Source of the DNA: a virus
Reading direction: 5' to 3' (one strand)
DNA: 64,000 nucleotides
IMG/VR virus record: IMGVR_UViG_3300042398_001385
Location: 89,315-153,314 of that record
Part shown: piece by piece, positions 39,040 to 52,161 of the stretch
Layout: the number at the start of each line of letters is the position of its first letter
How positions within the stretch are numbered: the stretch's first letter is position 1
Notes under the pieces: model-generated
Database searches by the model: none
Told to the model about the DNA's origin: nothing
The model's input: the letters and a program-made list of their open reading frames with translations, nothing else
Made by a program: the position numbers and the translations under genes

Positions 39040-40683
39040 ATGAATAGAAATTTAAAATCGTTTAACCAATTCTCTCCAGTTAATGAAAGCGTAGCTCCAG
39101 CTAAAGCATGGTTACTAAAAACAGCAGCAGAAGAGAAAAGAAGAAGATTTAAATTAGATCCGATGGAGAAAATTGAGTTTACTCCAGAGGAAGAGAAAAA
39201 AATATTAAATAATCCTAATTATGTAGAGGTTAGGGATTATTTCTTAAATACGGTTAAGAAGCCAGGTTTGGTTTATCCATTTACTTATTTTAGAATAGCA
39301 GAGAGATTACCTATGAGTGATCCTGATCCTAATGCTTTTTCCGTGGAAAATCTTTATAGAAAATATGAAGAAAACTCTCCAATGTTTTCAACCTTTCCAC
39401 TTCCTTTAGGAAATATCGATAGCTACATAAAAAGAACACCCGAGGGAGAAAGATCTTTCGAAAAATTATGGGATGATTTAGAAAATATTACATCACAAAA
39501 ACCTATAAAAGAATTCGTAGATAGATTCGTAGGTCCAATAAGAAGAGAATTTTCAGAATCTCTAAGATTAAAAGAAACAGATCCTGAAAGAGCTAGTCTT
39601 TTAGATAGACTATATCACGCGGTAACTGACCTGAAACAGCTAAAACCTCTAGTTGATGAGGAAACTAATAAAGAGGAAACTGCAGAGGATCAGTTAGTTG
39701 CTAATGGTAGTAAATATAAAGACACAAGAACATATCCAGAATTCTCAGATACTTATGTTGCTTTCAAGGAATTTGTTTTAGATTGTGAAGATAAAGTTTC
39801 GGGATGGGGATCAGGTATAACAGAATTTATAGAACTTTTAAGATCTATAGCGCCATCTATAAAAATACTATATTATAATATTGCTAAAAAAATAGTGGTA
39901 ACTTCAGCTAGATCAGCTGAAGGGATGAGAGCTGTTTGTAAAATATCAAATGCTCCATATTGTATAAGAACGGATTCAACTTTTTGGCAATATACATCAG
40001 GAAGACTACAGTTATCAATAAATCTATTAGGACTTCCTAAAACTGATGATAAATATCTAACTTCTCTTACTGTAGATCCTAACGGAAGAATTACAAGTTC
40101 TGCTAATAGAAGAAACCACTCAGTTACTAATAGAGGCTCTCAGAACTACTTAGAGCTTATGAAAGAATATGGCATCTATTCACCAGAAATAGAGGAAGCT
40201 ATAACTAAAAATTTCGATACAGAGTTAGTAATTAAAAAAATTATACAATCAATATCTCAGAAATCTGGGGGAAGCAACATAGCGTTAATACATGCACTAG
40301 GAAGTTTAGGAGTTCAAAGAGCTATAGAGGAAGGGGAATACTCTAGAGAGGAAATGGATACATTTAAAAATCTTGTAGTAACCATAATCAGAAAAGATAA
40401 CTCTATAAAATATCCAGAGGTTGTTAGCGCTTTTAATTCAGAAAAAAATGGAGGATTCTTTAGTTTAGAAGACATAGATCTATTTAAAGAACTTACTGAA
40501 GGAAAGTATGACAAAAATGATGTTATAAATATATTAAAACTAACAACGGAAGGTGTAGAAATGCTAGGATCTTTTCTAGAACAAACAAAAGATTCAGAGG
40601 ATGTTAACACAATTAAACTTGTTAAACATTTAGTTGATACTCACCCTTCAGTTATGGAATATGCTGAATCAGTTCTTCTTTAA
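39040..40683 (+). CDS. Hypothetical protein, paralogue of 37363-39024
   Basis: Same motifs; MNRNLKSFNQFSPVNE. Confidence 0.75.
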   Translation: MNRNLKSFNQFSPVNESVAPAKAWLLKTAAEEKRRRFKLDPMEKIEFTPEEEKKILNNPNYVEVRDYFLNTVKKPGLVYPFTYFRIAERLPMSDPDPNAFSVENLYRKYEENSPMFSTFPLPLGNIDSYIKRTPEGERSFEKLWDDLENITSQKPIKEFVDRFVGPIRREFSESLRLKETDPERASLLDRLYHAVTDLKQLKPLVDEETNKEETAEDQLVANGSKYKDTRTYPEFSDTYVAFKEFVLDCEDKVSGWGSGITEFIELLRSIAPSIKILYYNIAKKIVVTSARSAEGMRAVCKISNAPYCIRTDSTFWQYTSGRLQLSINLLGLPKTDDKYLTSLTVDPNGRITSSANRRNHSVTNRGSQNYLELMKEYGIYSPEIEEAITKNFDTELVIKKIIQSISQKSGGSNIALIHALGSLGVQRAIEEGEYSREEMDTFKNLVVTIIRKDNSIKYPEVVSAFNSEKNGGFFSLEDIDLFKELTEGKYDKNDVINILKLTTEGVEMLGSFLEQTKDSEDVNTIKLVKHLVDTHPSVMEYAESVLL

Positions 40684-40686
40684 TCT

Positions 40687-41175
40687 CTAATCAGGTAGAT
40701 AAGCAGTCCAGATATCCATTCCTTTAGAGAAATTCCTAATGAAATACCCATAACCAGGTTTAAATGGTTTGTGTCTCATTTTCATACCAGCTTCCTCTGG
40801 TGTTCTGTCGCCTTTTTTACTATTACATTTAGAACAACAGGTAGCTAGATTTTCCCATGTATTAATACCGCCTCTAGATTTAGGTCTAACATGATCTATA
40901 GTAAGTTGCTTCGTAGAATCGCAGTATAAGCACTTTAATTCGTCTCTCTTAAATATGTTCTCCCTAGTGGGTTTTAGCTTTTTAAATGGAAGAACAACGT
41001 ACTTTAAAAGCCTTATAACTGAGGGCCTTTTGTAAATTTTTTGATCTGTTACTATCGGATTTTCTTCATCGTGCTCTAAAACTTCAGCTTTACCTTTGTA
41101 TACAAGCTTAAATCCCCGGGCAAAATCGGTAACGCTTACAGGCGTAAAGTCATTATTTAATACTAGCACTTTCAT
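40687..41175 (-). CDS. HNH endonuclease; start corrected to 41175
   Basis: MKVLVLN, RDELKCLYC, TIDHVRPKSRGG, CNSKKG. Confidence 0.88.
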   Translation of the reverse strand: MKVLVLNNDFTPVSVTDFARGFKLVYKGKAEVLEHDEENPIVTDQKIYKRPSVIRLLKYVVLPFKKLKPTRENIFKRDELKCLYCDSTKQLTIDHVRPKSRGGINTWENLATCCSKCNSKKGDRTPEEAGMKMRHKPFKPGYGYFIRNFSKGMDIWTAYLPD

Positions 41176-41217
41176 AATCTTAAATTTTACATACTGGACA
41201 TTGTATTTATCTTTTTG

Positions 41218-41289
41218 TTTTCCCCCAAGGGTTCGAACCTCGATTCTGTGGACCAAAACCACATGTCCTGCCAATTAGACGAGAGGAAA
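41218..41289 (-). tRNA. tRNA-Gln(TTG)
   Basis: Cloverleaf; loop TTTTGGT. Confidence 0.9.
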
Positions 41290-41294
41290 ATATG

Positions 41295-41367
41295 AGCTTT
41301 TGACGGGGATCGAACCTGCGACACCTTCATTACAAGTGAAGTGCTCTACCAACTGAGCTACAAAAGC
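41295..41367 (-). tRNA. tRNA-Thr(TGT)
   Basis: Loop CTTGTAA. Confidence 0.92.
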
Positions 41368-41368
41368 A

Positions 41369-41445
41369 TGGGGTGACAGAGGGGAATCGAACCCCCGACC
41401 TTCTGAACCACAATCAGACGCTCTAACCAACTGAGCTACCGTCAC
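41369..41445 (-). tRNA. tRNA-His(GTG), CCA encoded, G-1 not encoded
   Basis: Loop TTGTGGT; C73. Confidence 0.92.
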
Positions 41446-41447
41446 AG

Positions 41448-41520
41448 TAGCGAGTGGCAGGTTCGAACTGCCGACCTTTGGGGTATGATTCCAACGCTCT
41501 ACCAACTGAGCTAACTCGCC
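41448..41520 (-). tRNA. tRNA-Met(CAT), elongator type
   Basis: Loop ATCATAC; GGCGAGT acceptor. Confidence 0.8.
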
Positions 41521-41527
41521 ATATAAG

Positions 41528-41600
41528 TGGAGTAGATGGGACTTGAACCCACATCCTCTTCCTTGCAAAGGAAGCGCTCAGCCAATTGAGCTACTACCCC
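41528..41600 (-). tRNA. tRNA-Ala(TGC)
   Basis: Loop TTTGCAA; G3:U70. Confidence 0.92.
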
Positions 41601-41601
41601 G

Positions 41602-41677
41602 TGGAGCGATAGACAGGATTCGAACCTGCGACCCCCGACTTGGAAGGACGGTGCTCTACCAACTGAGCTACTATCGC
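41602..41677 (-). tRNA. tRNA-Gly(TCC)
   Basis: Loop CTTCCAA; CCA encoded. Confidence 0.92.
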
Positions 41678-41753
41678 ATTTAGAGACGTGTGGAATTACG
41701 CATCCACTTCAACCGTCGGACTGTCCGTCTCTATATCTTACAGATACACTGTG

Positions 41754-41835
41754 TCGGAGCGGAGGGATTCGAACCCCCAATGCCGTAAGGCGGCTGATTT
41801 ACAGTCAGCTGAGCAGCCAATTGCTCAACACTCCG
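41754..41835 (-). tRNA. tRNA-Tyr(GTA) with C1:G72 and long variable arm
   Basis: Loop CTGTAAA; acceptor CGGAGTG/CGCTCCG-A. Confidence 0.88.
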
Positions 41836-41840
41836 AATTG

Positions 41841-41912
41841 CGGGGAAGGCTGGATTCGAACCAGCGACCTATCGATTAACAGTCGAGAGCTCTACCGCTG
41901 AGCTACATCCCC
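41841..41912 (-). tRNA. tRNA-Asn(GTT)
   Basis: Loop CTGTTAA. Confidence 0.9.
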
Positions 41913-41917
41913 AGTTT

Positions 41918-41999
41918 AGATTAGAGAATATTTGAGCGAGGTGTTTTTTGGTCAAATTTAAAAGTTCTGAGAAGTAACCCCATTCACCGCTTCTAATCT
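41918..41999 (-). ncRNA. GAAGCGG/TACTTC/TTCTC-family ncRNA (candidate Y-like RNA), copy inside tRNA operon 1
   Basis: Closing stem AGATTAGA/TCTAATCT; same motifs as the three copies beside the Ro60 gene. Confidence 0.7.
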
Positions 42000-42001
42000 T
42001 G

Positions 42002-42074
42002 TAGTCCCTGAGGGATTCGAACCCCCGACATTTTGGATGTAAACCAAACGCTCTACCAACTGAGCTAAGAGACT
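42002..42074 (-). tRNA. tRNA-Val(TAC)
   Basis: Loop TTTACAT. Confidence 0.9.
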
Positions 42075-42079
42075 AAATG

Positions 42080-42156
42080 TGGTTGACATAGAAGGATTCG
42101 AACCTTCGGCCTTTGACGTATCAGATCAACGCTCTAACCAACTGAGCTATATGTCA
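42080..42156 (-). tRNA. tRNA-Ile(GAT)
   Basis: Loop CTGATAC; CCA encoded. Confidence 0.9.
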
Positions 42157-42162
42157 ATGTTG

Positions 42163-42248
42163 CGGAAAGAATTGGAATCGAACCAAATACCAATTAAGGT
42201 ACGCTTCGCTTAGCAGGCGAGCCCCGTCACCATCTGAGATTACTTTCC
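42163..42248 (-). tRNA. tRNA-Ser(GCT)
   Basis: Loop CTGCTAA; long variable arm; G73. Confidence 0.88.
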
Positions 42249-42377
42249 TTTTTTTAATATTCTCTTTATTCTTTTGAGAATTTTTTTACCAGTTGTGAAA
42301 TTAATCACATCAATTCTTAGGTTTTCCCTACTTGAAGCAAAGCTTCCACTAATTACTACTTTTTCTTTTTTATTCAT
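42240..42377 (-). CDS. 45-aa basic peptide inside the tRNA operon (MNKKEKVVISG...KRILKKGK)
   Basis: Open frame filling the Cys-Ser spacer. Confidence 0.4.
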   Translation of the reverse strand: MNKKEKVVISGSFASSRENLRIDVINFTTGKKILKRIKRILKKGK

Positions 42378-42393
42378 AGGCACAATTTATTTG

Positions 42394-42464
42394 AGATCGC
42401 GACTGGAATTGAACCAGTATAGCCGGTTTTGCAGACCGTTTCCTAACCACTCGGACACGCGATC
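42394..42464 (-). tRNA. tRNA-Cys(GCA)
   Basis: Loop CTGCAAA; U73. Confidence 0.9.
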
Positions 42465-42475
42465 TTGTTTTTTAG

Positions 42476-42548
42476 AGGTTCCACCTGGATTCGAACCAGG
42501 ATCAGATCATCCGTAGTGATCCATTCTAATCCGTTGAACTATAGAACC
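42476..42548 (-). tRNA. tRNA-Arg(ACG)
   Basis: Loop CTACGGA. Confidence 0.88.
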
Positions 42549-42554
42549 TTTTTG

Positions 42555-42627
42555 CACGCCCTGTAGGAATCGAACCTACAACCTTTGGTTTTGGAGACCA
42601 ACGCTCTACCAATTGAGCTAAAGACGC
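42555..42627 (-). tRNA. tRNA-Trp(CCA)
   Basis: Loop CTCCAAA; G73. Confidence 0.9.
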
Positions 42628-42631
42628 ATTT

Positions 42632-42766
42632 AAGGAAAGATGAAGATGGTTGCGTGGACATCATCTTTTACGATTGGCTTTACTTAGGTGTATATCTCCC
42701 AACTCCGATGATCCCAGCCGATATACACTCTCATGCTATTGGAATCATCCTTCCCCAATCAACCTT
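42632..42766 (-). ncRNA. Unidentified structured RNA within tRNA operon 1
   Basis: Stems GATTGG/CCAATC, GTGTATATC/GATATACAC, AAGATG/CATCTT; closing AAGG/CCTT. Confidence 0.5.
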
Positions 42767-42768
42767 TG

Positions 42769-42842
42769 TGATCCCGCCGGGACTCGAACCCGGGACTCCC
42801 TCATTAAAAGTGAGGTGCTCTAGCCAACTGAGCTACGAGATC
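42769..42842 (-). tRNA. tRNA-Lys(TTT)
   Basis: Loop CTTTTAA. Confidence 0.92.
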
Positions 42843-42912
42843 ATTTTACTAAACCTATTTTTGTCTCACTAAACAAATGATGTTTAGTAATACAATTTCT
42901 TGTTTAGTATTG

Positions 42913-42985
42913 TGGTACCGGCCGGAATCGAACCGGCGACACCTAGATTTTCAGTCTAGTGCTCTACCGACTGAGCTACGGTACC
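42913..42985 (-). tRNA. tRNA-Phe(GAA)
   Basis: Loop CTGAAAA. Confidence 0.92.
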
Positions 42986-43014
42986 TTGGTTTTCCAGTAT
43001 GTCAAAGAACAAAT

Positions 43015-43044
43015 AAAAAAGGCTTCGAATAATCGAAGCCTTTT
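43015..43044 (-). terminator. Attenuator terminator of tRNA operon 1
   Basis: AAAAGGCTTCGA-TTAT-TCGAAGCCTTTTTT between leader and first tRNA. Confidence 0.88.
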
Positions 43045-43072
43045 CCAAAATATCTAAATATGATTTTCTGTA

Positions 43073-43180
43073 TTAGCTTCGATCGGGTTCTTTCCCCTTA
43101 GCCCAAAACGCCACCGTTTGATAGCAGCCATTAATCTGACTGTTCATGCGAATGATGTTATGTTTACTACAGTTTTTCAT
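43073..43180 (-). CDS. Leader peptide 1 (MKNCSKHNIIRMNSQINGCYQTVAFWAKGKEPDRS)
   Basis: 35-codon ORF just after the promoter; its 3' end ATCGAAGCT is complementary to the terminator 5' arm. Confidence 0.85.
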   Translation of the reverse strand: MKNCSKHNIIRMNSQINGCYQTVAFWAKGKEPDRS

Positions 43181-43192
43181 TGTTTTCTTTAT

Positions 43193-43257
43193 TATATATC
43201 TCTATTCCGATATTGTTTCACAAAATTAGAATAATTATTCCAGATAAAAAAATGATT
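43193..43257 (-). promoter_or_regulatory. Tandem promoters of tRNA operon 1 (AATCATTTTTT...TAATTTTG and GAAAC-N18-TATA)
   Basis: Both motifs recur with fixed spacing elsewhere in the window. Confidence 0.65.
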
Positions 43258-43268
43258 TTTGATATTTT

Positions 43269-43646
43269 TTAATATTCCTCTTCGATTATTTCCATTTCTT
43301 GGATTAATCCGACAGCTTCTTCACCTTCTACTTCATCCCATGAATAATCCACATTAGTAGATTCGTAAGCATTAAAGAAAGAATCTGAATTTCTTTCTAA
43401 TTGTTTTTTCATAAACGATACTATTTCATCTTCTGAATATTGACCGTTTACCATTTCTAAAGCTTCATTGTAATCAGAAATTCCTTCCTGACTTACTCCA
43501 TTCATCACATTTAAGAAAGATCCTAAAGCAAAAATAGCTGCTTCTCTTTGATCTTTTCCAATACCAACTGCTTTAAAATTTACCTGTGCATCAGGATTCT
43601 CGTGAGCTACACTCATAGTAACTCTGCTCATTTTGTTTAATTCCAT
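43269..43646 (-). CDS. Acidic hypothetical protein, probably early
   Basis: ORF; AATCTTTTTT...TACATTTA motif upstream. Confidence 0.65.
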   Translation of the reverse strand: MELNKMSRVTMSVAHENPDAQVNFKAVGIGKDQREAAIFALGSFLNVMNGVSQEGISDYNEALEMVNGQYSEDEIVSFMKKQLERNSDSFFNAYESTNVDYSWDEVEGEEAVGLIQEMEIIEEEY

Positions 43647-43715
43647 TGTAAAAGTTTTTTTAATTAGAATGTAAATGTAGGAATTAAATTACAGGGGAAA
43701 AAAAGATTTTATTAA

Positions 43716-44234
43716 TTAAATTAAAAATTTAATAATTTTATCCTTAATTCCTGACTGTTTTATCCCCTCATTATAAGGTTTGGTAGTCATTACAAAGTTT
43801 TCTAGTTTAGAAAGATTCATATCATCTACTGCCACCCAATGTGTTACCTCTGGATGGTTTTTAAGCCATTCTTTAATCTCTGTAAAACGAATAGCTTCGT
43901 AAAGATTTTTCCATTTGAAAAGTCCAAAACCATTCTCGTCGAAATCTTTCATATTAGGTGTAAGATCAATTGGGGGTTTAATTCCACGGGTAACATACAT
44001 CTTTTTCATTTGTTCAAGATTACCCCAGTTTTTCCAATCGGAAGAAATAACAATCTCGCATCCTGTTTCTTCGATAATTTGATTTAGAACTTTAACAGCT
44101 TTAGAATCAAAGCTATCCATTCGAATATCCAAAGGGGTTTCTGGGTTACTATCGTATCCCTTCTTTTTGAATCGTCCTCCCCATTGTGAGGAAAGACAGA
44201 TTACTCCATCATGATCTAAAAATAAAACTTTCAT
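43716..44234 (-). CDS. HAD-superfamily phosphatase (Swiss-army-knife RNA-repair HAD type); start corrected to 44234
   Basis: FLDHDGV, ISSDW, EIKEWL, VAVDD motifs. Confidence 0.78.
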   Translation of the reverse strand: MKVLFLDHDGVICLSSQWGGRFKKKGYDSNPETPLDIRMDSFDSKAVKVLNQIIEETGCEIVISSDWKNWGNLEQMKKMYVTRGIKPPIDLTPNMKDFDENGFGLFKWKNLYEAIRFTEIKEWLKNHPEVTHWVAVDDMNLSKLENFVMTTKPYNEGIKQSGIKDKIIKFLI

Positions 44235-44235
44235 G

Positions 44236-44309
44236 TGGTCCCTCACGGGCTCGAACCGTGGACCTACTGATTATGAGTCAGTTGCTCTAACCTGCTGAGC
44301 TAAGGGACC
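44236..44309 (-). tRNA. tRNA-Ile2(CAT), lysidine type
   Basis: Loop CTCATAA; GGTCCCT acceptor; near-identical to 49153-49226. Confidence 0.8.
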
Positions 44310-44315
44310 TTTTTG

Positions 44316-44395
44316 TACCTTCGGAGAGACTCGAACTCTCACGCTTTCGCACTAGATCCTAAGTCTAGCGTGTCTACCAATTCCACCACGAAGGC
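44316..44395 (-). tRNA. tRNA-Leu(TAG)
   Basis: Loop CTTAGGA; variable arm. Confidence 0.92.
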
Positions 44396-44401
44396 ATTTA
44401 G

Positions 44402-44474
<73 letters not shown>

Positions 44475-44480
44475 ATATTG

Positions 44481-44554
44481 CGGTCCTAGCGGGACTCGAA
44501 CCCGCGATCTCCGCCGTGACAGGGCGGCGTCCACTCCAACTGGACTGTAGGACC
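44481..44554 (-). tRNA. tRNA-Asp(GTC)
   Basis: Loop CTGTCAC; G73. Confidence 0.92.
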
Positions 44555-44640
44555 AATTTGTTACTTATTCTCCTACCCTTTTATTTCGTAACCAACCTGC
44601 TTATCTTTAAATACGAGTTTCTCAAGGGTACAGGTTGTAG

Positions 44641-44712
44641 TAGTCGGTACGGGATTCGAACCCGTGTGACAAGGATGAAAACCTTGTATCCTGACCCCTA
44701 GATGAACCGACC
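44641..44712 (-). tRNA. tRNA-Glu(TTC)
   Basis: Loop TTTTCAT. Confidence 0.92.
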
Positions 44713-44834
44713 ATAAAAAAGGAATAAGGCAGGACCTACGCTCTGTCTTGCATTCCATCTCAAGAGCTGCCTAATACCAGTGGGTTAGTGGTTACCTTAT
44801 TCCTAATTTCAATATTTCAAAGAGCGTATAAAAC

Positions 44835-44863
44835 AAAAAAACCTCTGAGGTTATCAGAGGTTT
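44835..44863 (-). terminator. Attenuator terminator of tRNA operon 2
   Basis: AAACCTCTGA-TAACC-TCAGAGGTTTTTTT. Confidence 0.88.
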
Positions 44864-44884
44864 AAATTATATCGTTATATTAAT

Positions 44885-44974
44885 TTAATTCCTCTGACAC
44901 TTAAATCTATCCTCTAGAAGTGAATCTTCTTTACGAAGAGTAAAATCTGTTGCGATATTTAAAAAGTGTTTCAT
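44885..44974 (-). CDS. Leader peptide 2 (MKHFLNIATDFTLRKEDSLLEDRFKCQRN)
   Basis: 29-codon ORF; its 3' end TCAGAGG is complementary to the terminator 5' arm CCTCTGA. Confidence 0.8.
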   Translation of the reverse strand: MKHFLNIATDFTLRKEDSLLEDRFKCQRN

Positions 44975-44999
44975 TGAAAGTTTTGTTCCTTTTTTATTA

Positions 45000-45026
45000 T
45001 ATACTCCAAAAGTACAGAAAAGTTTC
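45000..45026 (-). promoter_or_regulatory. GAAAC-N18-TATA promoter of tRNA operon 2
   Basis: Recurrent motif. Confidence 0.65.
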
Positions 45027-45062
45027 CTATTTAAAAAACGATTTCCTGAATTTTTTTATTTT

Positions 45063-45602
45063 TTATCCTCCTACTCCTATAGCAGCATAGGTATCAGCTA
45101 TTTTTTTGATCCCGTCGAATAATCTTTTTTTCTGTCCTTCCCATCTAGAATCACCCGTATTAATAGCTTTAACTAATACTGGAGGAAGAGCATTAGTAAT
45201 GTTTTCCATCGTGATATCATATATTTTATTTTGTGAAGGGAACAATTTAATTTTTTTGTCTTTAGGATCAGGAGCTAAATATATGTCTATATTTTTTTCT
45301 GTCCCTCCTGCAGTTGTTTTTAATCTCACTGCAATACCGTTTCCTGTAGATTTTGGTGCTTCCATTTGACTAGCAATAGATGCTGATTCAACTAATATAG
45401 CTGGACTCCCCTTAATAGGAAAATAAAGAGGATTAAGCTTTCCAGCAGAGTCTTTAACTTCACTAACAAATAGTTTGCCGAGTAAATCTTTTTGTTGACT
45501 TATATAAGTTTCCAATTTCTTTTTAAACTCCTCTGGTGAAGCAGCCTCGTTTACATTAAGATTCTCGGATAGGAATAAATCGAATGTTAGGATATTTTTC
45601 AT
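45063..45602 (-). CDS. Hypothetical protein with shared N-terminal motif
   Basis: MKNILTFDLFLSENLNVNE; start corrected. Confidence 0.7.
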   Translation of the reverse strand: MKNILTFDLFLSENLNVNEAASPEEFKKKLETYISQQKDLLGKLFVSEVKDSAGKLNPLYFPIKGSPAILVESASIASQMEAPKSTGNGIAVRLKTTAGGTEKNIDIYLAPDPKDKKIKLFPSQNKIYDITMENITNALPPVLVKAINTGDSRWEGQKKRLFDGIKKIADTYAAIGVGG

Positions 45603-45613
45603 TTTAATTTTTT

Positions 45614-45892
45614 TTATAAATTCCAAGCTGGGTTAGCAACTATTAGAATGCCATTTTCTACTCTAGGAATAGGTTTAGTTGAATAAACATCATCATATTC
45701 TATTTGGTCTGGGTAGAATTTTTGTCCTTGGAACATGATGTAGTTTTCTTCATCTTTACCTCTGTGGCTCCATCCTTGTCCTCTCATAGAATCGTGAGCT
45801 GCATCATCAACTGTTGGTCTGCCAAAGAGAGCATCCCAGAATCCCTCGTTTACTTTTTCAGAGAATGATTCAAATTCAAATATATGTTTCAT
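45614..45892 (-). CDS. Hypothetical protein with shared N-terminal motif
   Basis: MKHIFEFESFSEKVNE; start corrected. Confidence 0.7.
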   Translation of the reverse strand: MKHIFEFESFSEKVNEGFWDALFGRPTVDDAAHDSMRGQGWSHRGKDEENYIMFQGQKFYPDQIEYDDVYSTKPIPRVENGILIVANPAWNL

Positions 45893-45905
45893 TTTGTTTT
45901 TTATT

Positions 45906-46262
45906 TTAAAGCATATTAGATAAAATGTGATAAAGACTATCGCATTCATAATCCATATCGCTTAATTCTAAATTTCTTCCGTTGTACATTATAGTTGATT
46001 CATTAGTATCAACAGTAACAGATTTTCCAATAATCCAAGCTACTATTACACCAGGTTTAATCTCTCTGACGTTTTCAACAAAGGATTTATCAGGAAATCC
46101 TGATGGGTCTTTATATCCAATAGCTCTATAAATGCTGTCCAGTGATGCTCGATCTTCTTTTTTTTCGTATCCAATAAATCTTTTTCCAGCACTTACTGCT
46201 TTTTGAAGCAGAGAAGGTTTTTTAAACTGATTAAAATCCTCGAATATTTTTAGGTGCTTCAT
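45906..46262 (-). CDS. Hypothetical protein with shared N-terminal motif
   Basis: MKHLKIFEDF; GATATATA at 46276-46283. Confidence 0.7.
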   Translation of the reverse strand: MKHLKIFEDFNQFKKPSLLQKAVSAGKRFIGYEKKEDRASLDSIYRAIGYKDPSGFPDKSFVENVREIKPGVIVAWIIGKSVTVDTNESTIMYNGRNLELSDMDYECDSLYHILSNML

Positions 46263-46282
46263 TTATTTTTTTATTTATATAT

Positions 46283-46702
46283 CTATAGTATTCCTTGAGA
46301 TCTTAGAAATTGGTAGATAGAATCAGAATTTTCCTCTGCCCACGTTATAGCTATTTCCTCTATATCTACACCTTTATATGTTAAATCTGTTCCGTGTATT
46401 TCTAGAGATAGGTGCATAGATTCGTGCATAATCAATAAAACGTCCTTATATCCATTACCTAACCGAGTAGCATTTAAAAATAAAAAGAGCTTGTTGTGAT
46501 CATCCGGATAAACATTACATAATCCTGCTATATAAGCATTAGTTGGATTATCGTAACAGTCTTTCTTATAAAGACCATGTAGTTCTTCTACACCAAAAAA
46601 ATTAAATATATCTTCGGACTTTTTCCCTATTATTAGAGTATATTCGGGATATTGCTTTGTAATTATTCCTGATATATCGAAATATGATAGTTTTTTAATC
46701 AT
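46283..46702 (-). CDS. HExxH metallopeptidase-like protein
   Basis: IMHESMH followed by EE. Confidence 0.55.
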   Translation of the reverse strand: MIKKLSYFDISGIITKQYPEYTLIIGKKSEDIFNFFGVEELHGLYKKDCYDNPTNAYIAGLCNVYPDDHNKLFLFLNATRLGNGYKDVLLIMHESMHLSLEIHGTDLTYKGVDIEEIAITWAEENSDSIYQFLRSQGIL

Positions 46703-46712
46703 ATTATTCTAA

Positions 46713-48326
46713 TTATAATTCAAGCATGTCATAAACGTCCTTATATCCGTACTTTTTAGCCCCTCTATTCATTGCTATTAGATATGATCCAATGTTTAAA
46801 AGATCAGGAAATACTGGACTGTCTACTAATCTATCAGCTATCTTACCGGCAGCTTCTTCCCATTCTGGGCTTTCTTTCTTTTTAATAATAATATCCTGTA
46901 AAATTTCTAGTTCTTTACGGTTATCCTGGAGGAACTTTCCTATCCATGAAGTTTTAAACGCTTGCTTTATGTCGAACAGTAGGTACTTATTGAAATAGTA
47001 ATACTCACCTATGTATTCATTGCTCCTTTTAGCCATAACTTCTTTTTGTTCTGGAGTTCCGTAACTGTATCGTTCAGGTCTTGTGTATTCAGGGTGAGAC
47101 TCAAAATCTCTATCTAACTCAGATTCTAATTTATTCGGATCCCATGAATCCATACTTAACGCGTGTTCATCCGAATTATTCCAAATGAAACCTGCAGTCT
47201 CATCGAACTGTTTCATTGAAAATTTAGGAGTAGCTATGATCTTGCAAACCATCGTCATGTATCGTAAGTAGTTGCGCACAACTTCTTTGTCGAAAGGATC
47301 TTCTGTATGATCATTTGATAAATATTTCACACAAGCTTTCAAGTAATCTTTGCTGAATCCTCTATGAGCTTGGTACTCCTGTTCTTCTTTCTTGATGTCC
47401 AAGTTTTTGTACTGAGATCTTTTAATCTTCCCTAGACTCATAAAATCTTCCCAGTTCGTTTGTCCCTTCTCAAGATTGTACCATTTAGAACCCCAGTGTA
47501 GTCCACTTTTTCTGATGTCTTCCCTGTCTTGTAAATCTCTCATCTCACTGTCAAGATTATCATCGGTTGAGTAGTGAGAGCCCCCACTAAACGTAGTGTA
47601 GCCCATAGCTTCTATCGCATTGTTGGCATCTTGCAGCTCGTAATCGACAATATCTCCTTTTATCTTCAAGAAATAAATTTGGTTTCTGTTCTCAGCTGTT
47701 TTAGACACAAACTCCCTAACTTCTTCCTCTGCTTCAGGTAAGTAAAGAACTACTGTACCGTCAGACACTACCAAGCTCTTGTCATAGTAAGTGTCTATAG
47801 CAAAGAGACTGGCAGGTTTTCCGTTAGTCTTGATCATAGATTCTCCGGGCATCAAGTAGATGTACTTGTTACCTGTCCAGTTTCCACCTGAGTGAGAAGA
47901 AACTACGTGGTTCAACGTAAAGTGTTTTGTCCATCTGGTGGAATGAGCATCTATCATCCATTTTCTAAAAGTTTCAAAGTCCTTGTAGTGAGGTTCTTCC
48001 TTTATCCATGTATTTTCAGGGTCGTTGATGTCATCATTGTACTTCTTCTTGAGGTACTTCTCGAAAGAGTCATTGAAGCCTACGCTCTTTAGAGCTTTTC
48101 CTGTGTGAAGTATCATATCTTTACCACGAAGTGTGGGAAGCTCATCTGAGGATCTAATAAAAACTAAGTTCTTCCAATCAATAGCTACTATACCATCTTC
48201 CTTAAAATCCAGTTTGTCCACAGGTTCTCCAACTTTAGGTAATTCACTAATATTATTAATTATTTTAGAAGCTTTTGATAGGTATTCAAAAACAAACTCT
48301 TCGAATAATTTTATGTACTTTTTCAT
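46713..48326 (-). CDS. Hypothetical protein with shared N-terminal motif
   Basis: MKKYIKLFEEFVFE; GATATATA at 48333-48340. Confidence 0.75.
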   Translation of the reverse strand: MKKYIKLFEEFVFEYLSKASKIINNISELPKVGEPVDKLDFKEDGIVAIDWKNLVFIRSSDELPTLRGKDMILHTGKALKSVGFNDSFEKYLKKKYNDDINDPENTWIKEEPHYKDFETFRKWMIDAHSTRWTKHFTLNHVVSSHSGGNWTGNKYIYLMPGESMIKTNGKPASLFAIDTYYDKSLVVSDGTVVLYLPEAEEEVREFVSKTAENRNQIYFLKIKGDIVDYELQDANNAIEAMGYTTFSGGSHYSTDDNLDSEMRDLQDREDIRKSGLHWGSKWYNLEKGQTNWEDFMSLGKIKRSQYKNLDIKKEEQEYQAHRGFSKDYLKACVKYLSNDHTEDPFDKEVVRNYLRYMTMVCKIIATPKFSMKQFDETAGFIWNNSDEHALSMDSWDPNKLESELDRDFESHPEYTRPERYSYGTPEQKEVMAKRSNEYIGEYYYFNKYLLFDIKQAFKTSWIGKFLQDNRKELEILQDIIIKKKESPEWEEAAGKIADRLVDSPVFPDLLNIGSYLIAMNRGAKKYGYKDVYDMLEL

Positions 48327-48364
48327 ATACGTTATATATCTCGTTTATTTAGATATATAGTAGT

Positions 48365-48937
48365 ATGAAGTATATTAAACTATTTGAGGGATTTGATACA
48401 AATAATAATCCCACATCGATAACATTAGAGATACTTCCTGGATTCTACAATAGAATGAAAGAATCTAATGGAACTGTAACAGATGGAAGTTATGGATATC
48501 CTGATCCTAAAAATATACAGTTGTTCGATGGGAGTACTGATTTTAAAGAGAATTATAATCTTTGTTACGTAGCTAGATTAAATTCCAAATCTGAATATAA
48601 CTACGGAGGATCTGTATCTATTTGGATTAGTTATAGAAGAGACATTGCAGAGATTTCAATGTACGAGTCTATATTTGACTTTGATACTAATAGAAAATTA
48701 ATGGATTATGCTTCAGGTTTACCTAACACATCCCCAATTTATAAGGGATTATGGAAGGATACAAATCAGGATAACATAGAATATAACAGGAGATTAATGC
48801 CAAAGGATACACTATCAAGAGTTAGAAGAGAAGAATGGAACTTCTTTAATCCTACTGGATATTGCAAATTTGAAGATGGCGTAGAACCAGGTAAAACCGA
48901 TCACCGAGGATACTTCAGAATTAAAGAGGTTAAGTAA
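48365..48937 (+). CDS. Hypothetical protein with shared N-terminal motif
   Basis: MKYIKLFEGF; GATATATA at 48352-48359. Confidence 0.75.
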   Translation: MKYIKLFEGFDTNNNPTSITLEILPGFYNRMKESNGTVTDGSYGYPDPKNIQLFDGSTDFKENYNLCYVARLNSKSEYNYGGSVSIWISYRRDIAEISMYESIFDFDTNRKLMDYASGLPNTSPIYKGLWKDTNQDNIEYNRRLMPKDTLSRVRREEWNFFNPTGYCKFEDGVEPGKTDHRGYFRIKEVK

Positions 48938-48951
48938 AAAAATCTAAAAAG

Positions 48952-49054
48952 TACAAGAGGTTGGACTTGAACCAACATGAACTTTCGTTCTCGGGCATGA
49001 CACCCTAGCGTCTATCCATCGGATCATAAATGAACTCGCTTCCGCCACTCTTAT
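48952..49054 (-). ncRNA. Atypical tRNA-like RNA (Leu-type body, D-loop insertion, non-canonical anticodon loop TGTCATG)
   Basis: Acceptor ATAAGAG/CTCTTGT-A; T-arm GTTGG-TTCAAGT-CCAAC; variable arm GAAC-GAAA-GTTC. Confidence 0.65.
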
Positions 49055-49059
49055 ATTTG

Positions 49060-49143
49060 TACCCGGAGAGGGACTTGAACCCTCACGACCAAATGGCCAA
49101 CAGATTTTAAGTCTGTCTTGTCTACCTATTCCAACATCCGGGC
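49060..49143 (-). tRNA. tRNA-Leu(TAA)
   Basis: Loop CTTAAAA. Confidence 0.92.
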
Positions 49144-49152
49144 AGACTTTTG

Positions 49153-49226
49153 TGGTCCCTCACGGGCTCGAACCGTGGACCTACTGATTATGAGTCAGTT
49201 GCTCTAACCTACTGAGCTAAGGGACC
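49153..49226 (-). tRNA. tRNA-Ile2(CAT), lysidine type
   Basis: Loop CTCATAA; differs by 1 nt from 44236-44309. Confidence 0.8.
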
Positions 49227-49230
49227 TAAG

Positions 49231-49304
49231 TAGAGACGACGAGAGTCGAACTCGTGACCGCATGCGTATAAGGCATGTGCTCTAACCAATTGAGCTACGC
49301 CTCT
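49231..49304 (-). tRNA. tRNA-Ile(TAT)
   Basis: Anticodon arm CATGC-CTTATAC-GCATG; A73. Confidence 0.85.
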
Positions 49305-49311
49305 ATGGCTG

Positions 49312-49384
49312 TCGGGATACCAGGACTCGAACCTGGGGCCTCCTGGTCCCAAACCAGGCGATCTACCAACTGATCTACATCCCG
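49312..49384 (-). tRNA. tRNA-Pro(TGG)
   Basis: Loop TTTGGGA; CGGGATG acceptor. Confidence 0.92.
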
Positions 49385-49551
49385 AAATTGTATGTCTTTA
49401 AGTATCACCAGAACATACAAACTGTGCCAACCAACGATTTGGAGAATAAGTGTGCATAACATTAAAGAATACCAAGGTATCCTACCTGTCTACGGTGTAG
49501 AGGCCTATTCCATCTTCGATCCATGCCCAGCGCTAGGCAGAGGGATTTGTG

Positions 49552-49625
49552 TGATCCGAGCAGGATTCGAACCTGCGACCTACTGCTTAGAAGGCAGTTG
49601 CTCTATCCAGCTGAGCTATCGGACC
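49552..49625 (-). tRNA. tRNA-Arg(TCT)
   Basis: Loop CTTCTAA. Confidence 0.92.
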
Positions 49626-49628
49626 AAA

Positions 49629-49717
49629 TGGCGGAGAGGGCGAGATTCGAACTCGCGGTAGCTTTCACTACGTCGGTTTTCAAGACCGGTGCATTAAACC
49701 AACTCTGCCACCTCTCC
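49629..49717 (-). tRNA. tRNA-Ser(TGA)
   Basis: Loop CTTGAAA; long variable arm; CCA encoded. Confidence 0.92.
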
Positions 49718-49742
49718 AATTCATCATTATTTCAAAGACCAT

Positions 49743-49777
49743 AAAAAAACCGGGACTTTTAAAGGTCCCGGTTTTTT
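49743..49777 (-). terminator. Attenuator terminator of tRNA operon 3
   Basis: AAAAAACCGGGAC-CTTTAAAA-GTCCCGGTTTTTTT. Confidence 0.9.
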
Positions 49778-49798
49778 AGTTTATAGTTATAGTTAAAA

Positions 49799-49873
49799 CT
49801 AACACAGGACCTTTAGAGATCGTCTTATCGACGGTCTTAATATTATAGGTAATATGTTAAGTGTTTTGTTCAT
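49799..49873 (-). CDS. Leader peptide 3 (MNKTLNILPIILRPSIRRSLKVLC)
   Basis: 24-codon ORF; TAAAGGTCC near its end is complementary to GGACCTTTA in the terminator. Confidence 0.85.
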   Translation of the reverse strand: MNKTLNILPIILRPSIRRSLKVLC

Positions 49874-49881
49874 TTAAGTAT

Positions 49882-49946
49882 TATATATCGTTCCTTTTGT
49901 TTTGTTTCACAAATATAGATCTTTTATATTGATAAAAAAAATGATT
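49882..49946 (-). promoter_or_regulatory. Tandem promoters of tRNA operon 3 (AATCATTTTTT...TATATTTG and GAAAC-N18-TATA)
   Basis: Same layout as upstream of leader 1. Confidence 0.65.
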
Positions 49947-49959
49947 ATGTGGATTAATT

Positions 49960-50451
49960 TTAAAAATTAATTTGTTTTTTAATCTTTTCAATGATATAAT
50001 TTGAAAGATCTGTTTTATCTGAATAATCTAATTTATGTTTGCTAATAAACATGCTTATTTTATTCTTTATATCTCTTTTTATATCATTAGTTAATGTATC
50101 AATCTCATTAGAAAGACTATTATAAAGAGAGGCTCTTTTATAATCTCTAATAGTATCAGGATCGAGGCCATTATAATATTTTTCGATATCTGAATTATCC
50201 ATTTTACCAGCATTTATAGCCATAGTTATAATCTCAGTAAAAAAATCTCCATTTAGTTTTCCTTCTTTAACCATAGATCCAATAACAGAAATAAAGTGGT
50301 AAAGATCATCCTTATCTCCTTTATCGATTACACCTTTTGCAAGTGCTAAAATCCCTGAAGGAGTCATTGACTCAATCATTTTAGGTGTAAGTCCAGCAAG
50401 TTTTTGTGAATATGGAGTGCTATACTCTTCGAATAAATTTATATGCTTCAT
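49960..50451 (-). CDS. Hypothetical protein with shared N-terminal motif
   Basis: MKHINLFEEY. Confidence 0.7.
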   Translation of the reverse strand: MKHINLFEEYSTPYSQKLAGLTPKMIESMTPSGILALAKGVIDKGDKDDLYHFISVIGSMVKEGKLNGDFFTEIITMAINAGKMDNSDIEKYYNGLDPDTIRDYKRASLYNSLSNEIDTLTNDIKRDIKNKISMFISKHKLDYSDKTDLSNYIIEKIKKQINF

Positions 50452-50492
50452 TATATTTATATTATTTATCTATATCTATATATCTATATATT

Positions 50493-51422
50493 TCAATTAA
50501 TTCTTTTTTTACCTGCTATAGAATCCCATATGTTTCTACTTTTTGTAGCTATGGCTTTTCCCGTTGGTGCTAATCTATCCTGTACTGTTTTAAGAGCGTC
50601 TTGTGTGTCTTTCTTTAATCTAGCGCCAAACACATTTCCTTTTCTTATCCCCTTATCGATCATTTGTGTCATTTTTTCCATTCCATCATCAATAGTTTTG
50701 TTAATAGGAACTTTAAGATTGTCTAATGTATTTTGACACACTTTATAAAAGTCTTCTATATTTTGTCCTATATTAATTGATTTTACACCAACCTCTTTTG
50801 CTGTACCATAAACACAAGAACTTAAAAATTCAGGTATTGTTTTAAATGATGAAGTCGATGATTTATAAGATCCTACAGTTAATACTGATACAGCCTCTGA
50901 AGCTTTTGGCGAAGATTCTGCTAATTTATAAAGATCTTTAAGAACCATTTTAAATAATCCGGATGAATCTTCCTTCATACTATTAAAGGTCTCTTCTCCT
51001 TTATCAGTGTAATATTTATTTATTCTGCTAAAAGTGTATATAACGCTTAATCCTGCTGTGATTTCTCCTTCTTTAACATAAGAAAAAATAGACGAAGCTA
51101 GAGTCATTATTCCGTCTGCAACTGCTTCAGAAACAACATATATCCCGTCAGGCGTAAAAACTAGGGTCTTATCTTTTTTTTCTGCTATTTTTAAAAGCGT
51201 AGCTCCTATCTTCTTATTACTTTCATTAATTGAATCAGCATAAGCTTTCATTCCGCTTCCTACACACAAGAAATTATATTCCCTCCCGCTTATAGTTGTA
51301 GTTTTTACATCTTTTAATGTTCTATACAGAAGTTTATTATCTATATCAAACAGTTTTGATTTACTGTCTGTAATTTCGCTTTCAAATAAAACGAAATCAT
51401 TAAAGTCTAAAATCTTATTCAT
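50493..51422 (-). CDS. Hypothetical protein with shared N-terminal motif
   Basis: MNKILDFNDFVLFE. Confidence 0.7.
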   Translation of the reverse strand: MNKILDFNDFVLFESEITDSKSKLFDIDNKLLYRTLKDVKTTTISGREYNFLCVGSGMKAYADSINESNKKIGATLLKIAEKKDKTLVFTPDGIYVVSEAVADGIMTLASSIFSYVKEGEITAGLSVIYTFSRINKYYTDKGEETFNSMKEDSSGLFKMVLKDLYKLAESSPKASEAVSVLTVGSYKSSTSSFKTIPEFLSSCVYGTAKEVGVKSINIGQNIEDFYKVCQNTLDNLKVPINKTIDDGMEKMTQMIDKGIRKGNVFGARLKKDTQDALKTVQDRLAPTGKAIATKSRNIWDSIAGKKRIN

Positions 51423-51431
51423 TGGTATTTT

Positions 51432-51722
51432 TTAAGAAACACAAAATACTATTTTGTGAAAATCAGGGAGATACATTCTTTTAAATTTACCTAGATATCC
51501 AGATATGTCCTCGGCGTTTTCTTCGTCCTCCATATCAGAAACAACATAAAAAGTTGATGAATCTACAAAATCTAATCCTTTTTTACTTACGAAAAATAAA
51601 TCGTCTGACTCATCTTCAGATTCTTCTTCATCTTCGCTGCAATTCTCATCCTCTAGATATTCTGATATCTGTGGTTCCTCGTATTTAAACTCGTCGTATC
51701 CTGAATATATTTTTATACTCAT
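51432..51722 (-). CDS. Acidic hypothetical protein
   Basis: ORF coupled to the upstream gene. Confidence 0.6.
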   Translation of the reverse strand: MSIKIYSGYDEFKYEEPQISEYLEDENCSEDEEESEDESDDLFFVSKKGLDFVDSSTFYVVSDMEDEENAEDISGYLGKFKRMYLPDFHKIVFCVS

Positions 51723-52141
51723 TATCCCTCAATTAAAACCTTCTTTAGTTCATAAGCACCTTCAGATCCAGGTACCTCGTCATAATAACCAACTATAGAA
51801 TATTCTCTTCCATCAGAGCTTGAATCTGGTATCATTTCTATGGAGCTAACCATATTTCCTCCAACATATTCAGGATCTACTGAATGACCTATAGCCATTG
51901 TTGTTTCCTCTCCGTTAGCGTTAGTAAAGTTTACTATATAATCTCCCTCCTCATCATCTTGAGTTGGTACAAATTTAGTAGTTTCAGTTTCGAAGTTAGC
52001 AGGATCCATGTCCATTTGCTCTCCGCCCATATCCATGTCCATTTGCTCTCCGCCCATATCCATGTCCATTTGCTCTCCGCCCATATCCATATTTTTAACA
52101 GGTCTACCGACGAAACTTTCGTATATTTTAAGGTGCTTCAT
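51722..52141 (-). CDS. Acidic protein with shared N-terminal motif and three MDMGGEQMD repeats
   Basis: MKHLKIYESF; 27-bp tandem repeat at about 52005-52090. Confidence 0.7.
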   Translation of the reverse strand: MKHLKIYESFVGRPVKNMDMGGEQMDMDMGGEQMDMDMGGEQMDMDPANFETETTKFVPTQDDEEGDYIVNFTNANGEETTMAIGHSVDPEYVGGNMVSSIEMIPDSSSDGREYSIVGYYDEVPGSEGAYELKKVLIEG

Positions 52142-52161
52142 TTTTTTATATTATATATCTC

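Follow-up and report, generated by a model that had tools for sequence, protein, structure and literature searches.

Putative ribosome-mediated attenuators in front of three phage tRNA arrays, with leader codons that follow the downstream tRNAs

We analyzed the last 64 kb (hereafter the window; 64,000 nucleotides (nt), positions 89,315 to 153,314) of the 153,314-bp viral contig IMGVR_UViG_3300042398_001385, a T4-like phage with 32.5% GC, in which three tRNA arrays are each preceded by a short leader open reading frame (ORF) and an intrinsic terminator. The public runs that contain its sequence are lake-water metagenomes. Its tail sheath is ~38% identical to those of Flavobacterium phage MaF61 and Lak phages, and no close relatives were found among GenBank phages, similarity being at the tRNA level only. 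ARAGORN detected 26 tRNAs in the window, all on the minus strand and grouped as three arrays. A 27th, tRNA-Ser(GCT) at 42162-42248, had been placed in array 1 by an earlier interpretation of the letters alone (the sequence-only reading) and is backed by both an Rfam match and an ARAGORN call at a relaxed threshold. Together they make up the whole tRNA complement of the 153-kb genome. Array 1 (41217-42985; ARAGORN and Rfam) contains 16 genes, for Phe, Lys, Trp, Arg(ACG), Cys, Ser(GCT), Ile(GAT), Val, Asn, Tyr, Gly, Ala, Met, His, Thr and Gln. Array 2 (44235-44712; ARAGORN) consists of Glu, Asp, Met, Leu(TAG) and Met, and array 3 (49059-49717; ARAGORN) of Ser(TGA), Arg(TCT), Pro, Ile(TAT), Met(CAT) and Leu(TAA).

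The regions in front of the arrays are built alike. On the minus strand, to which the coordinates of all unit features refer, each unit has, in this order, a TAnnTTTG motif, a second motif TATATAAT(A), an ATG-initiated ORF, an AT-rich spacer, a hairpin with a T-run, a boxA-like motif and the first tRNA. The TAnnTTTG motifs, which are of the Bacteroidota-type -7 promoter form, are TAATTTTG (43221-43228), TACTTTTG (45007-45014) and TATATTTG (49910-49917), and end 32-40 nt upstream of each leader ATG (40, 32 and 36 nt for leaders 1, 2 and 3, respectively). Over the window as a whole there is no excess of the motif (76 occurrences vs 82 expected); only its fixed position before the leaders stands out. 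The TATATAAT motif lies at 43191-43198 in unit 1, 10 nt before the ATG, and upstream of leaders 2 and 3 at 44996-45003 and 49880-49887. It also precedes several other genes of the phage and may be a phage-type (T4 late-like) promoter. Leader ORF 1 (35 codons, MKNCSKHNIIRMNSQINGCYQTVAFWAKGKEPDRS, 43073-43180) contains no Leu; leader ORFs 2 (29 codons, MKHFLNIATDFTLRKEDSLLEDRFKCQRN, 44885-44974) and 3 (24 codons, MNKTLNILPIILRPSIRRSLKVLC, 49799-49873) are shorter. GC content is locally raised around leader 1 (52% vs 32%). The terminators were found by a terminator scan at 43014-43047, 44839-44863 and 49744-49777. The first folds into a 15-bp stem followed by a T-run (-20.2 kcal/mol), and the third scores on the plus strand too. 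In all three units, 21-25 nt of AT-rich sequence separate the stop codon from the terminator.

Downstream of the terminators lie the boxA-like motifs GTTCTTTGACAT (42999-43010, 13 nt before tRNA-Phe), GCTCTTTGAAAT (44814-44825) and GGTCTTTGAAAT (49729-49740, 11 nt before tRNA-Ser(TGA)), with the consensus G(T/C/G)TCTTTGA(A/C)AT. In the whole 153-kb genome, the pattern TCTTTGA[AC][AG]T has three occurrences, one immediately downstream of each array terminator. In arrays 1 and 3 the motif occupies the 26-28 nt between the terminator and the first tRNA. In array 2, 101 nt lie between the motif and tRNA-Glu, and they include an extra hairpin of ~90 nt with a T-run (44715-44804; minimum free energy -26.9, z=-2.3), which is also present in the related locus L001, is absent in loci L002, L003 and L155, and has no Rfam match. 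The sequence-only reading had proposed one minus-strand layout for the three arrays, from promoter motifs and an ORF of 24-35 codons through a pairing segment (see below) and a terminator to a boxA-like motif. All of these components were recovered in each unit, and the three boxA-like sites proved to be the only ones genome-wide.

We then compared the leader codons with the tRNAs that follow them, assuming standard wobble and U34 reading whole family boxes, an assumption needed anyway for 27 tRNAs to cover all codons. In leader 1, 31 of the 34 codons are read by array 1, and all 16 of its tRNA species are represented. The three foreign codons (GAA, CCC and GAT) all lie at the antiterminator. 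None of 200,000 random ORFs with phage codon usage covered all 16 species (mean 10). In leader 3, 12 of 23 codons are matched to array 3 (P=0.004). A 3x3 leader-by-array table gave chi2=29 (P=8e-6), and its observed diagonal was reached by 0 of 100,000 label permutations. The match is sharper in the regulatory zone of the leaders: 8/8 codons in leader 1 (TVAFWAKG), 8/8 in leader 3 (IILRPSIR; P=1.4e-5) and, with the zone defined from other phages, 6/8 in leader 2 (KEDSLLED; P=0.0012), the last to Glu, Asp and Leu(TAG). The proposal that leaders and anticodons agree at the isoacceptor level held for Ser, Ile and Arg, for which leader 1 uses AGT/AGC, ATC/ATT and CGC/CGA and leader 3 uses TCG/TCT, ATA (four times) and AGA (twice), whereas the separation is partial for Leu (leaders 2 and 3). 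As a separate observation, the phage genes use hardly any CGN codons for arginine (0.18% of all gene codons), yet the phage carries tRNA-Arg(ACG). CGN codons account for 4 of the 88 leader codons and are present in all three leaders, two of the four standing in leader 1 ahead of tRNA-Arg(ACG).

Short ORFs might, of course, arise by chance in AT-rich spacers beside ordinary terminators of upstream genes. The genome contains 431 ATG ORFs of 20-40 codons, and an E. coli-type promoter and terminator scan of the region gave counts no higher than those of shuffled sequences, a consensus that is uninformative for a Bacteroidota-type phage. However, leader 1 itself is the only one of the 431 that covers 16 tRNA species, and chance is further contradicted by the conservation and co-variation across 36 families described below. 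We therefore consider this explanation extremely unlikely.

Related loci retain the leaders. Three close ones (L001-L003) were obtained by a search for protein homologues of a HAD gene located between arrays 1 and 2. In these and in L155, leader ORFs stay in frame across 3n indels, and substitutions are synonymous or fall within the codon set of the array. For example, leader 1 of L003 shows three synonymous changes and one Ile-to-Asn change within the array-1 set; leader 2 in the relatives has 24-25 codons, remains in frame and contains the run L-D-[LR]-L-E-D; and the leader 3 changes ATA->TCC->TTA and TTA->TCA all lie inside the array-3 codon set. At distant loci, array composition differs and leader content differs correspondingly. 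One of the two leaders of L019 has 16 consecutive codons that match its 12-tRNA sub-array, covering 11 of the 12 tRNAs, and the run EVVKTKMEGADSLL of the other covers 10/10 tRNAs of the next sub-array. In L267, MKNLVNIQPQPQQHPQGC (QPQPQQHPQ) stands before Pro, Pro, His, Gln, His and Gln, and DDAEE in leaders of L267 and L076 precedes Asp, Asp, Glu and Glu, with ..WVDDAEEICS.. as an example. Likewise, the L214 leader TTYTYQPETKQPKGGT is followed by tRNAs for Pro, Gln, Tyr, Glu, Lys, Gly and Thr, and a leader with MKTTYTYQPETKQPKGGT.. by Pro, Pro, Gln, Gln, Gln, Tyr, Glu, Lys, Gly and Thr.

For a wider sample, viral contigs were scanned for the post-terminator motif, a procedure blind to leader content. 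A first loose boxA scan was discarded because it returned mostly chance matches, with a tRNA directly downstream in only 5 of ~118. The extended 17-mer GTTCTTTGACRTATTGG was found in more than 115 viral contigs, as a lower bound; among the matches listed, about one third have a tRNA within 60 nt downstream, and many of the listed contigs carry leader units. Units were then collected by a fixed pipeline requiring a terminator within 150 nt before a tRNA and taking the longest ATG ORF of 12-70 codons that ends no more than 60 nt before the stem, with the array extending over the tRNAs up to the next unit. The pipeline returned 68 units, and an ORF accompanied 60 of these. At a minimum length of 20 codons, ORFs were seen in 85% of the 68 units, vs 19% of random positions. 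Clustering the leaders at 50% peptide identity left 36 non-redundant units. On the evidence of these sequences, the device is widespread among phages.

Across the 36 units, leader codons track the downstream tRNAs. The fraction of leader codons read by the own array is 0.539, vs 0.403 for permuted arrays (z=9.2; reached in 0 of 20,000 permutations), and the fraction of tRNA species with a codon in the leader is 0.918 vs 0.725 (z=6.8). In frames +1 and +2, codon match is 0.36 and 0.38 and species coverage 0.59 and 0.61. The codon match persisted when the window was excluded (z=8.3), in small untruncated arrays (z=7.1), and under stricter clustering in which similar arrays were merged too (n=27, z=8.4). 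Moreover, where an array contains one of two isoacceptor classes for Ser, Arg, Leu or Ile, leaders favour the class that is present (pooled odds ratio (OR) 5.2, P=1.6e-4; OR 42 for Ile ATY vs ATA), which favours selection at the level of codons rather than of the peptide. Co-variation of leader codons with array content beyond shuffled controls, which the sequence-only reading had put forward as a check, is therefore strongly positive and frame-specific.

This frame specificity bears on an RNA-only switch, T-box-like or of another riboswitch type, that would bind tRNA or a ligand while the ORFs are incidental. T-boxes sense uncharged tRNA by the same terminator/antiterminator logic, and the GC-rich leader 1 region would fit a structured RNA of this kind. 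However, the anticodon match is confined to one ATG-initiated reading frame, a single RNA would need to recognise up to 16 tRNAs, and no T-box or other riboswitch family matched at E<=1 in an Rfam search of 40500-50500. Such a switch is thus highly improbable.

The leader 3' ends are also linked to the terminators. In all three window units they carry a copy of the terminator 3' arm, and when the nascent RNA is folded up to the terminator loop, the leader 3' segment pairs with the terminator 5' arm. The complementarity suggested earlier between the leader 3' end and the 5' side of the terminator is thus present in every unit, as segments of 7-10 nt. Antiterminator segment 1 (ATCGAAGC, 43076-43083) pairs with GCTTCGAT of the 5' arm (-14.3 kcal/mol), segment 2 (TCAGAGG, 44891-44897) with CCTCTGA of the 5' arm (-13.5 kcal/mol), and segment 3 (AAAGGTCCTG, 49805-49814) with CGGGACCTTT of the 5' arm and loop, with one G-U pair (-15.6 kcal/mol). 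Across units, the leader tail (last 11 codons and stop) pairs with its own terminator 5' arm at a mean of -13.2 kcal/mol, vs -7.9 kcal/mol for the arms of other units (z=-13.7); the controls gave -6.3 kcal/mol for the tail against its own 3' arm and -3.5 kcal/mol for the leader head. Since pairing is stronger with the own arm than with those of other units, the antiterminator co-varies with the terminator.

In an alignment of units anchored at the antiterminator 5' end, the match to the own array was 0.66-0.86 at codons -11 to -4 and at the permuted level (0.25-0.47) from -3 onward, a profile that was unchanged when the window was excluded. For a ribosome with codon -4 in its A site, coverage would extend roughly to the first bases of the antiterminator segment; the matching codons thus stop at the point from which a stalled ribosome would mask the antiterminator. 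The distance from stop codon to terminator is narrow across units, mostly 20-34 nt, and leaves enough room for the hairpin to fold next to a ribosome that has reached the stop.

A metatranscriptome contains low-depth contigs of the phage or a close relative. A contig of 176 nt covers 43015-43182, a span that opens shortly upstream of the leader 1 ATG and closes at the terminator, with none in the neighbouring 1 kb; it hints only weakly at a short leader RNA ending at the terminator, given that contigs cannot prove ends and that the library may hold DNA. The runs are available as contigs only, with depth, ends and strand unreadable, so that uncovered parts are uninformative, and most RNA contigs on the arrays are tRNAs of other organisms.

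A short RNA ending at the terminator could also come from ORFs that encode functional micropeptides or are otherwise translated, with terminators that end short mRNAs or insulate arrays transcribed from elsewhere, and the N-terminus MK(N/T)..N-I, common to many leaders, is in line with this. However, peptide sequences are not conserved between families while codon sets follow the downstream anticodons, the choice of synonymous class tracks the isoacceptor present, and each ORF 3' end is complementary to its own terminator. In addition, in arrays 1 and 3 the boxA-like motif fills the 26-28 nt that separate the terminator from the first tRNA, which leaves no space for a promoter. Micropeptides are thus a very unlikely explanation. 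This account, an RNA-only switch and chance ORFs are all contradicted by the frame-specific, isoacceptor-level and pairing co-variation.

These data point to each array being a tRNA operon under a ribosome-mediated (trp/his-type) transcription attenuator that reports the decoding of its own codon set, a reading to which we assign a probability of roughly 80%. In trp/his-type attenuation, the position of the ribosome on the leader selects terminator or antiterminator. The units show a 5' ORF, enrichment of cognate codons, an intrinsic terminator, an antiterminator that overlaps the leader 3' end, and the corresponding codon placement. Attenuation by a leader ribosome, as the sequence-only reading had proposed, thereby gains comparative support from codon co-variation, frame specificity, pairing co-variation and geometry. 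Anatomy, co-variation and geometry are observed, while we infer leader translation, Nus binding, the physiological trigger and the direction in which the switch works. Transcription would start upstream of the leader, and a ribosome would translate the leader, whose middle would list the tRNAs of the operon at about one codon each, while the polymerase heads to the intrinsic terminator. With fast decoding, the ribosome would reach the last codons and the stop and cover the 7-10 nt segment; the terminator would form and no tRNAs would be made. Should the supply of a single cognate charged tRNA run short, the ribosome would stall 4-11 codons upstream and leave the segment free to capture the terminator 5' arm, and the polymerase would read through. 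The boxA-like element would then be transcribed and would probably load Nus factors for processivity through the structured, untranslated array. The predicted net effect is demand-driven, self-limiting tRNA synthesis, with an OR gate over the tRNAs of the operon.

Several points weigh against the attenuator. Leader 2 as a whole shows no significant enrichment for the codons of array 2 (8/28 matched, P=0.18). Leaders mostly hold about one codon per tRNA, so their sensitivity should be below that of his and trp leaders with tandem codons. They also carry codons of other arrays, for example in the common N-terminal stretch, and since a stall at such foreign codons would also lead to readthrough, specificity would be incomplete. 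Each leader has two candidate promoter motifs, TAnnTTTG and TATATAAT, and the choice between them is ambiguous. Some phylogenetic dependence remains among the 36 units, and the boxA motif was the route by which two thirds of them were identified. Furthermore, region 1:2, the anti-antiterminator or pause hairpin, shows no excess over shuffled controls across the 36 units (P=0.21), being predicted weakly for window leaders 1 and 3. This hairpin defines the trp type and not the class of leader-peptide attenuators as a whole. Nevertheless, without conserved 1:2 pairing an untranslated leader would read through by default, and shut-off would need tight coupling of transcription and translation; we know of no proof of such coupling in Bacteroidota.

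The last points also favour a different signal for the same attenuator, namely general translation capacity or amino-acid charging, by which tRNA synthesis would be timed to host physiology. An attenuator cannot distinguish an absent from an uncharged tRNA, as is established for trp and his; many leader codons are not read by the own array; and with no 1:2 hairpin, any slowing of translation would result in readthrough. However, a general sensor needs no leader-array tracking, yet tracking is seen at z=9 and partly at the isoacceptor level, and extra tRNA does not relieve amino-acid starvation. We regard a general or charging signal as unlikely, though it is the leading alternative.

The attenuator reading assigns a role to the boxA-like element, and its distribution outside phages is informative. 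In bacterial genomes, matches to the 17-mer are nearly all in Bacteroidota. About 46 of the 81 bacterial matches lie 290-900 nt after the 16S 3' end, and where a 23S start was recognised, 23S follows the 17-mer by 47-116 nt. By these distances, the position is that of boxA in the 16S-23S spacer of Bacteroidota rRNA operons. The E. coli rrn boxA is UGCUCUUUAACA, and the phage motifs GCTCTTTGAAAT, GGTCTTTGAAAT and GTTCTTTGACAT share its GCUCUUU-purine-A core; unlike it, they follow a terminator that would be regulated, and in arrays 1 and 3 the first tRNA begins 11-13 nt further on. The motif core GCUCUUUGAAA resembles both that E. coli sequence and the Aquifex 12-mer GGCUCCUUGGCA, which has been crystallised with NusB/NusE, the proteins that bind the rrn BoxA (PMC3177189). 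In other phages, the motif directly follows the promoter or the preceding tRNA. Taken together, the boxA-like motif is probably a host-type antitermination signal for polymerases that have passed the attenuator, and it suggests a Bacteroidota host. MaF61, the nearest cultured phage by tail sheath, was considered as a test system; its five motif sites are at chance level and all without tRNAs, which makes it unsuitable.

Besides its use at tRNA arrays, GTTCTTTGACRTATTGG is seen in a conserved context that lacks tRNAs, ..gggagactgggaacaacagagaaga-motif-taaaatggtgttttggaag.., at L162, L168, L173, L175 and others, many of them contigs of ~37% GC. This looks like a second conserved use of the boxA-like element.

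Other features lie in and around the arrays. The HAD gene between arrays 1 and 2 (43716-44246, minus strand) encodes a HAD_SAK_2 domain (Pfam, E=1e-23), the HAD phosphatase domain of 'Swiss Army Knife' RNA-repair proteins. Homologues of its protein occur at 43 viral loci, 36 of which have no tRNAs nearby, indicating that linkage between this gene and the arrays is loose. Array 1 is immediately followed by an HNH endonuclease gene (40687-41184, minus strand; Pfam HNH_5, E=1e-16), and arrays of L042 are interrupted by HNH genes. A small lysine-rich ORF is found inside a tRNA array both in the window (42243-42383, minus strand, 47 aa) and in L019 (3927-4058, plus strand, 43 aa). The pair shows weak similarity (..GS..SS(R/K)EN..; BLASTP E=5e-4 in a single comparison) and may represent a conserved micro-gene that resides in arrays. 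Near the arrays (45614-52160), at least six hypothetical proteins share the N-terminal motif MK-x-[IL]-[KN]-[IL]-[FY]-E-[ED]-[FY], with ORFs at 45949, 46262, 48326, 48365 (plus strand), 50451 and ~52130. In the gap between tRNA-Asn and tRNA-Val (41913-42000), a TAAATTTG motif was observed at 41953-41960. For YrlA, there were only sub-threshold Rfam matches, which overlap tRNAs.

More tentatively, the leaders could act as a counter-defence alarm, in which loss of one tRNA stalls the leader ribosome and turns on the replacement operon, with boxA making readthrough processive. The loss may be due to a host anticodon nuclease, where a PrrC-like link is speculation, or to phage-driven decay of host tRNAs. 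The split into three operons may then reflect tRNAs that are attacked or exhausted together, and the HAD phosphatase gene may belong to the same response. We consider this extension possible, with the balance of probability against it.

tRNA genes are usually viewed as being controlled at initiation (by growth rate and the stringent response) and by processing. If the attenuator reading is correct, genes for stable RNAs could be controlled by their own decoding activity in a closed feedback loop, and phages with large tRNA arrays would meter tRNA output by demand. The leader would also provide a sequence-only read-out of operon boundaries and of the tRNAs that are treated as one unit, and would represent a natural, compact multi-input OR-gate sensor of decoding capacity that could be used as a reporter of tRNA availability. 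Why phages carry tRNAs, and when these are used, would become a directly testable question. The sequence-only reading was not aware of attenuation of phage tRNA arrays having been described, and literature searches agree: full-text queries on attenuation of tRNA genes and on boxA of Bacteroidota turned up no account of such control, although subscription journals are mostly outside this coverage and prior publication is possible.

Among known systems, the closest in design are the multivalent leaders of ilvGMEDA (Ile/Val/Leu) and thr (Thr/Ile), together with trpL, hisL, leuL and pheL. Like these, the phage units have a short leader rich in the sensed codons and, as in ilv/thr-type leaders, an intrinsic terminator and an antiterminator that overlaps the leader 3' end. 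Homology to Rfam leader families was not found, Thr_leader (RF00506) and Phe_leader (RF01859) scoring 29.7 and 26.9 bits vs a gathering score of 55; these sub-threshold matches and that to L20_leader were rejected as probably terminator-driven. In contrast to ilv/thr-type leaders, the phage units would control tRNA genes and not biosynthetic enzymes, show no conserved 1:2 hairpin, are borne by Bacteroidota-type phages and are followed by a boxA-like element. Moreover, whereas ilv/thr-type leaders use tandem runs of one to three amino acids, the phage leaders list up to 16, about once each. The pheST attenuator (pheM) of E. coli and the T-boxes of Firmicutes are similar in that the supply for decoding is tuned to the state of the cognate tRNA via a terminator/antiterminator choice; however, they control synthetase or amino-acid genes and not tRNA genes, and T-boxes bind tRNA directly without a ribosome. 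The putative attenuator itself is of a known type; what is probably new is its use for tRNA genes, through a leader in which the tRNAs of the array are listed.

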